Of a DNA stretch of 64,000 nucleotides, positions 10,462 to 40,465 are shown in pieces. This stretch comes from Minisyncoccota bacterium (GTDB lineage Bacteria; Patescibacteriota; Minisyncoccia; Phycocordibacterales; UBA9973): assembly GCA_041665885.1 (NCBI GenBank), contig JBAYHY010000001.1, positions 5,715 through 69,714 of the forward strand, read 5' to 3'. Position numbers and translations under genes: made by a program. A model generated the notes under the pieces. The model was not told the DNA's origin, did no database searches, and saw only the letters and a list, made by a program, of their open reading frames with translations. The first letter of the stretch is position 1. Every line of letters starts with the position of its first letter.

Positions 10462-11037
10462 TTAGTCGTAAAACCAATGGTGTCGATCACATCGGTGACA
10501 CCATCCATATCTCGTGTGATGGTGCGGATGACTAAGAGCTATTATGAGCCCTCCCGCCGCCATACTCGCCATAAATAAAAGCAACACGAGTGCTATGAAC
10601 CCCAGACAACCCCAGAAGGAAAGGTCGCCCAACCACCATGCCAAGGATATGGTCCACGGCACGTGCTGCTCTTGGCAGACCTGGGATGGAGGTAGCGGAT
10701 CGAGCGGCCTGGGTTCTGGGGTCAGCGTTGCCAAGCGATTGCCGCATGATGCTTTGTATCTCATGATGCCGTCAATGTCGACAAGAACAACCTCGCCAGC
10801 GTTCACGGTAGTCAACTCGAAAACATTTCGAGCCCGGTTGTAATTCAGAAAGTCCGTGGTAATGGCAAGCCGAGTGGGCCTGAGGCCCATGTCCGCCATC
10901 TGTCCCGCACTTAACGGACCGGACATGATCGGAAACTGATCCAAGTTAGCGCCAGCTGGAACTGTGCCAGCCACCAGCGGTGTTGCTACCGCGAGTAGCA
11001 TCATAGTCAATGCGAGAACCACCATACCGTTTTTCAT
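10462..11037 (-). CDS. Hypothetical secreted / single-pass membrane protein encoded in the GC-rich island (signal peptide, Pro-rich linker, C-terminal TM, His/Cys-rich tail)
   Basis: 191-aa ORF with a signal-peptide-like N-terminus (MKNGMVVLALTMMLLAVATPLVAG), a C-terminal hydrophobic helix and an HPHHHTRYGWCHRCDRHHW tail. It is preceded by a consensus promoter (TTGACA-18-TATAAT) and an SD (AGGAG-7-ATG) and followed by the terminator above. GC is far above the genome background. Confidence 0.5.
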   Translation of the reverse strand: MKNGMVVLALTMMLLAVATPLVAGTVPAGANLDQFPIMSGPLSAGQMADMGLRPTRLAITTDFLNYNRARNVFELTTVNAGEVVLVDIDGIMRYKASCGNRLATLTPEPRPLDPLPPSQVCQEQHVPWTISLAWWLGDLSFWGCLGFIALVLLLFMASMAAGGLIIALSHPHHHTRYGWCHRCDRHHWFYD

Positions 11038-11107: not shown

Positions 11108-11137
11108 ATTATATCACACTATTTACCATTTTGTCAA
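11108..11137 (-). promoter_or_regulatory. Sigma70-like promoter (TTGACA-18-TATAAT) for the island protein gene; back-to-back with the plus-strand promoter of RNA unit 1
   Basis: Minus-strand TTGACA is the complement of 11132-11137. TATAAT is the complement of 11108-11113. Confidence 0.6.
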
Positions 11138-11142
11138 GTTAT

Positions 11143-11383
11143 TGACTTTTCATTAAATCCGAATTAATGTACATTTGAACACACATCGACTTGGAAACGG
11201 ACGACATAGCCCACCTCGATAAAGACGAGAAGGACGAGGCGGAGTAAGGGCTCCCAGGGCTTCCGGTCCGCAGATGGACAACCCGCTCTAGCGTGAGAGC
11301 AACCGTTATCCTAATCTGATCGGGATTCCAAGTCATCGAACGGGCCGGCCTGCAACACGCAGGCCGGCCCATCATCATTTTTA
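11143..11383 (+). ncRNA. Candidate structured sRNA, unit 1 (promoter TTGACT-16-TAATGT, 9-bp closing stem GACUUGGAA/UUCCAAGUC, GC-rich core, intrinsic terminator)
   Basis: The -35 is at 11143-11148 and the -10 at 11165-11170. The terminator hairpin GGGCCGGCCTGC-aacac-GCAGGCCGGCCC lies at 11342-11370 and is followed by CATTTTT. The 5' and 3' ends are shared with unit 2. Confidence 0.5.
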
Positions 11384-11401
11384 ATAAATTTATTAACATT
11401 C

Positions 11402-11673
11402 TTGACTTTTTTTTAAATCCGAATTAATGTACATTTGAATATACATCGACTTGGAAGCGGGGCAGAGAATGGGAAGAATTTCCCGCCCCTCACGACGAAA
11501 CTTGTCGGCCTCTCACACGGAACACGCCGGATAGTGTCTCACGGGAAGGAATTAAATACTCTCCTTTCGGGGAAGAGAGATCGCCCGTGAATGACCTCCA
11601 ACGGTCGAAATCGTGGATTCCAAGTCACCGAATGGGCCGGCCTGCAACACGCAGGCCGGCCCACTTCATTTTT
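11402..11673 (+). ncRNA. Candidate structured sRNA, unit 2 (same promoter, closing stem and terminator as unit 1, unrelated GC-rich core)
   Basis: The -35 TTGACT is at 11402-11407 and the -10 TAATGT at 11425-11430. An identical terminator hairpin lies at 11634-11662, followed by a TTTTT tract. The core contains a GGGGCaGagaaTGGGAAgaaTTTCCCgCCCC hairpin. Confidence 0.5.
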
Positions 11674-16313: not shown

Positions 16314-16390
16314 GTTTAATGACGTATTGCCTCTTGTTTTTATTACAAAAAATAACTATTAAATCGGAACAAAATTCTTTTTTCTACGTG

Positions 16391-16462
16391 TGACCCTACC
16401 GGGAATCGAACCCGAATTTTATCCTTGAGAAGGATACGTCCTAACCGTTAGACGATAGGGCC
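16391..16462 (-). tRNA. tRNA-Glu (anticodon CUC)
   Basis: The reverse complement folds as a cloverleaf: GGCCCUA acceptor, anticodon loop UUCUCAA, T-loop UUCGAUU. Confidence 0.85.
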
Positions 16463-16843: not shown

Positions 16844-16871
16844 TGTTATTTTATAAATTCCCCCACAAACG

Positions 16872-17388
16872 AAAAAAGCCGTCGAGAAACTCGACAGGCC
16901 TTTGGTGATAATTTGGGTGGGGAGGTTTCCTAGTGGAAACCTCCCCTAACCCTTTTGGTCACGATGTGGCTGTGGGGGATTGATTTTTGTTTTTGCCCCG
17001 TTAGCCCGACATGGCGACCGATGTGAGAGAGCAAGTTCGCGTCCTAGACGCCATGCTCTCACGACTCCAGAAAAACAACTAATTTTTTTCAAACAGGAGC
17101 TTTTACGACCTTCCTGGGGTCAAGTTGACCCGAGCTCCTTGGTCGCCGCCGAAGCCCTCAGGCTTCGACGAAACTGGCAGTGTCGCGCGCGTTTATCACG
17201 ACTCCCTCCCTTCTAATTCTTTCTTGGGCGCTGGTTAGCGGCCCATGCCGTCGGGCTTGCGGGCGGTGGCGAAGCCGGCGATCTTGGTCTTCTTCTTCGA
17301 ATTTTCCATCTTCTCGAGGAACCGGGGGGAACCGCGAATCATGCGAGCCTCCTACCGTGATAACCAGGGACCTCCCCCAGCTATCTTC
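16872..17388 (-). ncRNA. Candidate large (~515 nt) GC-rich structured RNA of unknown class, bounded by a consensus promoter and an intrinsic terminator
   Basis: The minus-strand promoter is TTGACA(comp 17417-17422)-16-TATACT(comp 17395-17400). The terminator on the minus strand is GUCGAG-uuu-CUCGAC-GGC-UUUUUU (16877-16895). Perfect hairpins are dense throughout, e.g. GGGGAGGTTTCC-tagt-GGAAACCTCCCC, GGGTCAAGTTGACCC, AGGAGCT...AGCTCCT and GTGAGAGAGC...GCTCTCAC. GC is far above background. Confidence 0.5.
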
Positions 17389-17394
17389 CCACAC

Positions 17395-17422
17395 AGTATA
17401 GCACTACTACAAAAAATGTCAA
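17395..17422 (-). promoter_or_regulatory. Consensus sigma70-like promoter (TTGACA-16-TATACT) driving the GC-rich RNA candidate
   Basis: The -35 and -10 hexamers are seen directly as complements of tgtcaa (17417-17422) and agtata (17395-17400). Confidence 0.6.
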
Positions 17423-40224: not shown

Positions 40225-40366
40225 GCGCGGTTAGCTCAGTTGTAGCGACGCCTGAAATACGCTGTAATTTTCATTTTATGATAAGATGAAAATTTGCGCG
40301 GTTAGCTCAATTGTAGCGACGCCTGAAATACGCTGTAATTTTCATTTTATGATAAGATGAAAATTT
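40225..40366 (+). repeat. Two tandem 71-nt repeats, each a degraded copy of the tRNA-Val 5' half plus a 9-bp-stem hairpin (AATTTTCAT...ATGAAAATT)
   Basis: Each unit (40225-40295 and 40296-40366) starts with gcgcggttagctca(g/a)ttg, which is identical to the tRNA-Val 5' end. Confidence 0.7.
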
Positions 40367-40439
40367 GCGCGGTTAGCTCAGTTGGTAGAGCGACCCCTTG
40401 ACGTGGGGTAGGCCACAGGTTCGAATCCTGTATCGCGCA
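40367..40439 (+). tRNA. tRNA-Val (anticodon GAC)
   Basis: The acceptor stem is GCGCGGU, the anticodon loop UUGACGU, and the T-loop UUCGAAU. The 3' trailer is ACCCA. Confidence 0.85.
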
Positions 40440-40465
40440 CCCACAAGATAAGGTAGAATTTATTT

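Follow-up and report, generated by a model that had tools for sequence, protein, structure and literature searches.

What do two adjacent stretches of DNA encode when their ends are nearly identical and their interiors are unrelated? We addressed this question for a locus of a Minisyncoccota bacterium (GTDB lineage Patescibacteriota; Minisyncoccia; Phycocordibacterales; UBA9973), within a segment of 64,000 nucleotides (nt) of contig JBAYHY010000001.1 (GenBank assembly GCA_041665885.1, positions 5,715 to 69,714 of the forward strand); this whole segment is hereafter called the window, and all coordinates refer to it unless a related contig is named. A previous examination of this DNA without database searches (hereafter, the sequence-only reading) had singled out two tandem units resembling small RNA (sRNA) genes, with common ends and different cores. 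In the interpretation that we prefer and hold with about even confidence, the two units are independently transcribed, non-coding sibling sRNA genes, with products of ~190-235 nt, from a small, lineage-restricted family of Nomurabacteria/Paceibacterota-like bacteria of the Candidate Phyla Radiation (CPR).

Architecture of the tandem units

The sequence between 11120 and 11690 contains two head-to-tail units on the plus strand, unit 1 at ~11142-11382 and unit 2 at ~11402-11673. Repeat finding recovered both shared segments where the sequence-only reading had placed them: the 5' module (repeat D5, 11128-11200 versus 11388-11460) spans 73 nt with 85% identity, and the 3' module (repeat D10, 11323-11371 versus 11615-11663), which includes the perfect 12-base-pair (bp) terminator hairpin, spans 49 nt with 96% identity. 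Pairwise alignment of the unit interiors does not rise above the noise level. The cores are 129 nt (type A, unit 1) and 161 nt (type B, unit 2) long, and a search for shared motifs of at least 7 nt found no 7-mer common to both, in agreement with the original description of completely different cores of ~130-160 nt. Read from 5' to 3', each unit consists of TTGACT, a 17-nt spacer, TAATGT, ~17 nt, GACUUGGAA, the core, UUCCAAGUC, a 7-nt linker, the 12-bp hairpin and a U-run. P1 in the following list denotes the closing stem formed by GACUUGGAA and UUCCAAGUC.

11142-11170 (+), unit 1, promoter-like region: -35 TTGACT at 11142-11147, 17-nt spacer, -10 TAATGT at 11165-11170
11188-11198 (+), unit 1, 5' arm of P1: GACUUGGAA, then A (mismatch) and C
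11199-11323 (+), unit 1, core type A: predicted three-way junction with P1
11324-11334 (+), unit 1, 3' arm of P1: G-A-UUCCAAGUC
11335-11382 (+), unit 1, 3' module: linker AUCGAAC, hairpin 11342-11370, 7-nt spacer, U-run 11378-11382
11402-11430 (+), unit 2, promoter-like region: -35 TTGACT at 11402-11407, 17-nt spacer, -10 TAATGT at 11425-11430
11448-11458 (+), unit 2, 5' arm of P1: GACUUGGAA, then G (mismatch) and C
11459-11615 (+), unit 2, core type B: consensus three-way junction with a branched 5' domain and a long 3' hairpin
11616-11626 (+), unit 2, 3' arm of P1: G-A-UUCCAAGUC
11627-11673 (+), unit 2, 3' module: linker ACCGAAU, hairpin 11634-11662, U-run 11669-11673

At the DNA level, the 5' arm of P1 is GACTTGGAA (11188-11196 in unit 1, 11448-11456 in unit 2) and the 3' arm is its complement TTCCAAGTC (11326-11334 and 11618-11626, respectively); the stem comprises 9 bp, or 11 positions when the internal mismatch and the C-G pair are counted. 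The arm sequence occurs 7 times in the window compared to 0.7 occurrences expected; three sites outside the locus (27232, 28285 and 63353) lie inside coding sequence and were dismissed as chance matches. The two-arm pattern is found in units 1 and 2 only and was matched in none of 100 shuffles. The arms of the 9-bp closing stem proposed previously are present in both units. The terminator hairpin is GGGCCGGCCTGC-AACAC-GCAGGCCGGCCC (GGGCCGGCCUGC-AACAC-GCAGGCCGGCCC as RNA).

The TTGACT and TAATGT hexamers reported previously are present, with a spacer of exactly 17 nt in both units rather than 16 or 17 nt; TAATGT agrees with the -10 consensus TATAAT at 3 of the 6 positions. A comparable -35/-10 pair, at an equal distance, occurs in all homologues described below: the hexamers of unit 2 are conserved in the related loci L009 and L098, and variants are present in L017 (TTGATT/TAATAT) and L100 (TTTACT/TAAGAT). 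Transcription of unit 1 would start at about 11177-11180. A terminator scan called the terminator of unit 2 and left that of unit 1 uncalled because the U-run of unit 1 starts 7 nt past the hairpin; given this displacement, transcription of unit 1 might run on into unit 2. The U-run of unit 2 overlaps the stop codon of the convergent gene, which encodes a 509-amino-acid (aa) protein (end of the open reading frame (ORF) at 11672).

Homologues and turnover of the locus

The 509-aa gene was traced through 80 GTDB genomes and 12 metagenome contigs, and the interval separating it from rmuC (or the replacement of rmuC) was compared. Percentages in the list below give the identity of the 509-aa protein with the window copy, and ORF5 is the divergent gene next to unit 1.

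Window: 100%; ORF5, unit 1, unit 2
L098 (same sample): 89%; unit 2 alone, beginning 7 nt past the rmuC stop codon
L009: no identity value, the gene being cut at the contig end; purN-like gene, then unit 2
L017: 83%; ORF5, unit 2
L097: 88%; no insert, both genes abut
L099: 80%; no insert, both genes abut
L100: 79%; a different RNA, denoted X, then a GC-rich element with its own promoter

Units are present only in relatives with at least 79% identity of the 509-aa protein. Relatives at 78% identity or less have other neighbors and no unit, as judged by blastn, regular expressions and a covariance model of unit 2 applied to 629 kb of sequence. Unit 2 was found in three other lineages (L009, L017 and L098), and the covariance-model scores are 194-220 bits. 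A metagenome scan for the two-arm pattern, which required exact arms and is therefore blind to covaried members, yielded 11 matches, of which L009 is the sole true homologue and the other 10 lie in coding sequence; scans of viral contigs with arm, terminator and core patterns gave chance matches only.

The presence of units is patchy, the 509-aa protein being 79-89% identical among unit-bearing and unit-free relatives alike, and in the identity matrix RNA-free lineages are nested among RNA-bearing ones, implying repeated loss or gain of units. The four versions of unit 2 share 81-93% nucleotide identity, compared to 74-81% for the neighboring gene. In particular, unit 2 is 87-93% identical to its counterparts in L098 and L009, and the adjacent gene is 81% identical between the window and L098, with 59% identity at third codon positions. 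This conservation indicates that unit 2 evolves under purifying selection. The flanks of unit 1 are ~92% identical to the flanks of unit 2 in both the window and L098, which could reflect an older duplication at the site or, alternatively, partial gene conversion.

Two features could also mark mobile or mobile-derived DNA, with the inverted repeat functioning as DNA: a 9-bp inverted repeat encloses a variable interior, and entire units are either exactly present or exactly missing between two conserved genes. Candidates of this sort are a miniature inverted-repeat transposable element or insertion sequence remnant, an integron-like cassette and a retron-like msr-msd. A possible transposase-like gene start next to the ORF5 homologue of contig L004 (see below) would point the same way. 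We give this explanation very little credence. The arms and the terminator motif are confined to this locus, in the window and in the related loci, with no further copies in the window or in the 629 kb of related sequence; the flanks that recur, promoter and terminator, do so as direct rather than terminal inverted repeats; target-site duplications are lacking; and no viral contig matched. Pfam scans of the window ORFs of at least 110 aa, together with the precomputed Pfam annotation of the identical contig L005, detected no gene for a reverse transcriptase (RT), Cas protein, TnpB/IscB, IS110 recombinase, integrase, transposase or Ro/TROVE protein; the remark of the sequence-only reading that RT, Cas, TnpB/IscB and IS110 genes are missing nearby thus extends to the full 64 kb. 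Retrons are the closest in form, with terminal inverted repeats (a1/a2) that close a structured, variable interior of similar size, much as P1 does. However, retron non-coding RNAs (ncRNAs) are co-transcribed with, and run into, the adjacent RT gene, whereas each unit is followed by a strong terminator, the gene downstream is the convergent 509-aa one, and no RVT domain is encoded in the window. The lack of dispersed copies and of RT and transposase genes, together with the terminator possessed by each unit, led us to reject both a mobile element and a retron.

A third core type on the same scaffold

The L100 locus encodes, at the same position, an RNA (X) with a 204-nt core that is unrelated to A or B. 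Its promoter hexamers are separated by 17 nt and lie at the matching distance, the leader ends with AUC, GACCUGGAAAC pairs with GUUUCCAGGUC to form P1, the linker is UCCACC, and the terminator is GGGCCGG-UUC-GCAACUCGC-GAA-CCGGCCC. Thus, three core types, A, B and X, are found so far on one scaffold. Because X carries this scaffold, the combination of conserved ends with different cargo appears to be a property of a small family, beyond a single duplication. The swapped cargo that had been proposed from units 1 and 2 is supported by X, which shares the leader, P1, linker and terminator with them and shows a compensatory change in P1 and covarying pairs in the terminator. The outer module of the family consists of a putative sigma-70-type promoter, a short 5' leader, the 11-position P1, a short linker and a GC-rich intrinsic terminator; P1 joins the 5' end to the segment just upstream of the terminator, and the core sits inside P1.

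Immediately after X, L100 contains an element of ~430 nt that is rich in guanine and cytosine (GC; 4500-4960, minus strand), with a TTGACT-17-TATAAT promoter and strong hairpins; it has no ORF of more than 52 aa on the minus strand and no Rfam match, and shows no relationship to units 1, 2 and X. This element may be another RNA at the same site.

Predicted structure and coding potential

P1 and the terminator are predicted in every family member. The consensus structure derived from the four versions of unit 2 contains 71 predicted pairs, with 97.5% of the cells paired and 5 compensatory pairs; none of 500 column shuffles reached the observed value, and when the partners are slid by one column, pairing falls to 46-54%. 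For four close sequences, these results are supportive but not conclusive with regard to unit 2 being a conserved structured RNA. In an alignment of the scaffold alone that includes all six sequences, 94% of the cells are paired, compared to 45% after a one-column slide. Across the six sequences, P1 shows one compensatory change, from U-A to C-G, in L100, where the internal mismatch (A·A or G·A elsewhere) is replaced by an A-U pair, and the terminator shows three pairs with compensatory changes around a conserved loop. The strand assignment agrees with these structures: several invariant G-U pairs in unit 2 fit the plus strand, on which the promoter and terminator lie, and X folds with a z-score of -3.4 in the sense orientation versus -0.65 in antisense, again in keeping with the strand of its promoter and terminator.

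The four versions of unit 2 do not maintain a common reading frame, and the units contain no conserved small ORF, findings that support the non-coding, sRNA-like character of units 1 and 2 suggested by the sequence-only reading. A type I toxin mRNA with a 5'-3' fold-back (hok-like) was rejected on the same grounds, namely, the lack of a kept ORF in the four unit-2 homologues and of hydrophobic peptides.

Several observations weigh against the interpretation of the two units as sibling sRNA genes. A scan for consensus promoters called the promoter of neither unit, the -10 element being weak. The z-scores for the folding of whole units, -5.3 for unit 1 and -5.8 for unit 2, come largely from the terminator; for P1 and the core without the terminator, the values are -2.2 and -1.5, respectively, and the antisense strands of both units fold about equally well, so that the hairpin-rich nature ascribed to the cores receives weak support. 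Unit 1 is strain-specific, with no homologue beyond identical copies in L003 and L005, and accordingly there is no sign of selection on its core. The family so far comprises six sequences from one narrow clade. Comparison of the cores with the 64-kb window gave chance-level matches only, and the cores are complementary to translation-start regions, and to one another, no more than expected by chance, by a duplex method that is uninformative for GC-rich targets. Finally, the sRNAs OmrA and OmrB, which are compared with the units below, use their conserved 5' end as an unpaired seed that base-pairs with target mRNAs with the help of Hfq, whereas the conserved 5' segment of the units is paired in P1 in all predicted folds.

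Some of these points bear on an alternative in which only unit 2 is functional, and unit 1 and possibly X are transcribed by-products without a function of their own: a duplicated promoter/terminator cassette of unit 2 would have had its interior replaced by unrelated GC-rich DNA via illegitimate or homologous recombination. We judge this alternative unlikely. It is favored by the strain specificity of unit 1, by a fold no better than that of its antisense strand, by its displaced U-run and by the uptake of other GC-rich DNA (ORF5 and the second element of L100) at the same hotspot, but P1 of unit 1 is intact and its junction nucleotides are kept, the compensatory change in P1 of L100 suggests that the stem is selected even where it encloses a core other than B, and X folds much better than its antisense strand.

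Known RNA families and closest systems

At the gathering threshold, Rfam 15 matches in the window are seven transfer RNAs (tRNAs) and include neither unit. With E-values up to 10, the best match is PtaRNA1 (RF01811), at 30.9 and 21.7 bits versus the gathering score of 47. The likeness consists of a GC-rich terminator hairpin of similar sequence (GCCGGCC...GGCCGGC), and membership in this family was rejected because the alignment covers the terminator alone, skips most of the model and scores below gathering. The L100 locus has no Rfam match other than terminator-like or chance ones. The cmscan search proposed along with the sequence-only reading thus returned for the units only sub-threshold, terminator-only matches. 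6S RNA was rejected as well, given that the predicted consensus is a three-way junction, not a rod with a large central bubble, and that there is no Rfam match.

ARAGORN detects no tRNA or transfer-messenger RNA at the locus, and there is no tRNA-like match in Rfam. Nevertheless, the linker immediately following P1 reads N-YCR in all six sequences (11335-11341 and 11627-11633 in the window), and in two of these, L009 (A-CCA) and L100 (U-CCA), it resembles a discriminator followed by CCA, the others being A-CCG or A-UCG. In addition, P1 with the C-G pair spans 11 positions, close to the 12-bp acceptor/T stack. It is conceivable that P1 mimics a tRNA acceptor-type minihelix and that processing by RNase P and RNase Z (perhaps also the CCA-adding enzyme) at the P1 ends would yield a stable, end-clamped RNA without leader or terminator. 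With CCA missing from four of the six sequences, no T-arm-like element, and negative results from ARAGORN and Rfam, such processing appears highly improbable.

The nearest precedent for the preferred interpretation is provided by OmrA and OmrB of enterobacteria, which are encoded by adjacent genes and have nearly identical 5' and 3' ends and a distinct central region (PMC2588501). As in the window, the two sRNA genes lie on the same strand and each has a promoter and a terminator (the promoters of the units being recognized from their hexamers), and near-identical ends, in the units 85% over 73 nt and 96% over 49 nt, surround distinct centers; the promoter type shared by the units implies co-regulation, as with OmrA and OmrB. 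The differences are in size, ~80-90 nt versus 190-280 nt for the family described here, and in the cores, which in this family are 129-204 nt long, GC-rich and wholly unrelated; there is no sequence similarity to OmrA/OmrB and no match to the Rfam family OmrA-B. PrrF1 and PrrF2, tandem sRNA paralogs, represent another comparable arrangement.

Y RNAs and vault RNAs, both the eukaryotic ones and those of the bacterial YrlA type, similarly combine conserved paired ends with a variable interior, and their paralogs are often clustered. The units differ from these in the lack of an Rfam match and of a Ro/TROVE gene in the window, and the sequence of the P1 helix appears unrelated to the Ro-binding helix. 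More generally, the shared ends could be a handle for a common protein encoded by an unlinked gene, and the cores would then be interchangeable specificity or cargo modules of a guide-, Y-RNA- or scaffold-type ribonucleoprotein, with P1 and the conserved junction and linker nucleotides forming the protein-binding site. We find this possibility rather doubtful. Across the three unrelated cores, conservation exceeds the requirements of pairing in the leader, P1, the outermost 3-4 nucleotides at either edge of the core, the linker and the terminator loop (GCAAC-N-CGC), and conflict systems typically show such an accessory, patchy distribution; yet the identity of the ends is equally well explained by recent duplication or gene conversion, the 64 kb contain no gene for an RT, Cas, TnpB/IscB, IS110, Ro/TROVE or other RNA-guided protein, ORF5, the recurrent neighbor, is missing at two unit-2 loci, and no core has a target-like match in the window.

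A guide or bridge RNA function, as suggested by the sequence-only reading, is not supported, there being no partner protein, no matching target in the window and no mobile-element hallmarks; in particular, among the window ORFs of at least 110 aa and in the Pfam annotation of L005, no adjacent gene for Cas, IscB/TnpB, an IS110 DEDD recombinase or a Tas effector was found. Among the other suggestions of that reading, an array of RNA paralogs comes closest to our interpretation, the nearest precedent being ordinary sibling sRNAs of the OmrA/OmrB kind.

Full-text literature searching found no description of an sRNA from CPR (Patescibacteria) bacteria. Thus, the predicted RNA family is new, and its general kind, clustered sibling sRNAs, is known. 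Its atypical features are the end-to-end clamp, the long unrelated cores and the turnover at a single hotspot in a CPR lineage.

Genomic neighborhood

The proteins of the window have source names that refer to Candidatus Paceibacterota/Nomurabacteria. The GC content of the window is ~40%, and the units lie in a GC-rich patch between divergent and convergent genes. The convergent 509-aa RnfD-like/NAD-binding protein gene is the last in a cluster with genes for an extracytoplasmic function (ECF) sigma factor and for DUF5667, FMN_bind and ApbE proteins; on the opposite side of the locus are rmuC and the gene for an ExoX-like exonuclease. The Pfam content, in window ORFs of at least 110 aa and in the precomputed annotation of the identical 20-kb Joint Genome Institute contig L005, is limited to housekeeping genes. 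The divergent side consists of the following features:

10462-11037 (-), ORF5: protein of 191 aa, predicted to be secreted or membrane-bound, with a signal peptide and, toward the C-terminus, a membrane segment and a tail rich in His and Cys
11108-11137 (-), ORF5 promoter: perfect sigma-70 TTGACA-18-TATAAT with TG, back to back with the unit 1 promoter

A search of 5.8 billion proteins yielded only two homologues of ORF5, and no Pfam family matches it. Its GC content is 54%, and GC at third codon positions is 0.59 versus 0.45 in the neighboring gene; ORF5 may have been recently acquired. In L017, the promoters of ORF5 and unit 2 are likewise back to back. ORF5 adjoins the units in two lineages only, and unit 2 occurs without it in L098 and L009; an obligatory link between ORF5 and the RNAs is therefore rejected, and ORF5 is probably independent of them.

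On contig L004, an ORF5 homologue with 57% identity is followed, beyond its promoter, by no RNA unit; the contig ends at the start of a gene (1-110, minus strand; MYTTNPHMPKVRRDA...) whose product may have an N-terminus resembling those of transposase or helix-turn-helix (HTH) proteins.

Two other stretches of the window attracted our attention. A second GC-rich island (up to 0.64 GC) at 16860-17420 on the minus strand occupies a gap of ~1 kb without a long ORF, between tRNA-Glu (16390-16462) and the gene for an ArsP permease. It contains a promoter-like TTGACA-17-TATACT (~17418-17390), then AGGAGG and a 36-aa ORF (MIRGSPRFLEKMENSKKKTKIAGFATARKPDGMGR), and after these several GC-rich hairpins. 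Rfam has no match to the island at the gathering threshold, and none of the fetched loci contains a homologue; neither this island nor the second L100 element is similar to any fetched sequence. At 40225-40366, directly upstream of tRNA-Val (40366-40443), there are two 71-nt tandem repeats that are 99% identical; each starts with the first 17 nt of tRNA-Val (GCGCGGTTAGCTCAGTT), then diverges and ends in an AT-rich hairpin. These repeats look like truncated 5' copies of the tRNA.

A proposed scaffold with exchangeable cores

If the units are indeed sibling sRNA genes, the common promoter would ensure the same expression of the siblings, and P1 together with the terminator hairpin would tie up both ends of the RNA, protecting it from exonucleases. 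The P1 clamp would also insulate the core, allowing each core to fold alone as a three-way junction; the core would be the working part, binding a protein or another RNA that differs between siblings. The family would diversify as entire units are duplicated at a single hotspot, which lies between rmuC and the RnfD-like gene, with cores replaced and the flanks of tandem copies homogenized by homologous recombination via the conserved ends, and with frequent loss of whole units. Recombination homology residing in the conserved ends would explain the replacement of cores, the homogenized flanks and the precise presence or absence of units.

A stronger version of this scheme, which we consider distinctly improbable, is that the leader, P1, linker and terminator constitute a modular RNA chassis that is read by a factor encoded elsewhere or by the processing machinery, the cargo being exchanged by recombination through the ends. 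If this were the case, the chassis would be an RNA-gene cassette system at a dedicated CPR hotspot, possibly involved in defense or in host interaction in these episymbionts. Should the clamp prove to be a recognition handle, it would represent a natural RNA scaffold with exchangeable cargo; otherwise, the units would be ordinary sibling sRNAs. Given the very small genomes of CPR bacteria, an accessory RNA that is conserved and strongly structured probably has a specific role. As sibling sRNAs, the members of this family show how an sRNA gene may keep the parts responsible for expression and stability, namely, the promoter, the end clamp and the terminator, while its core is swapped wholesale.

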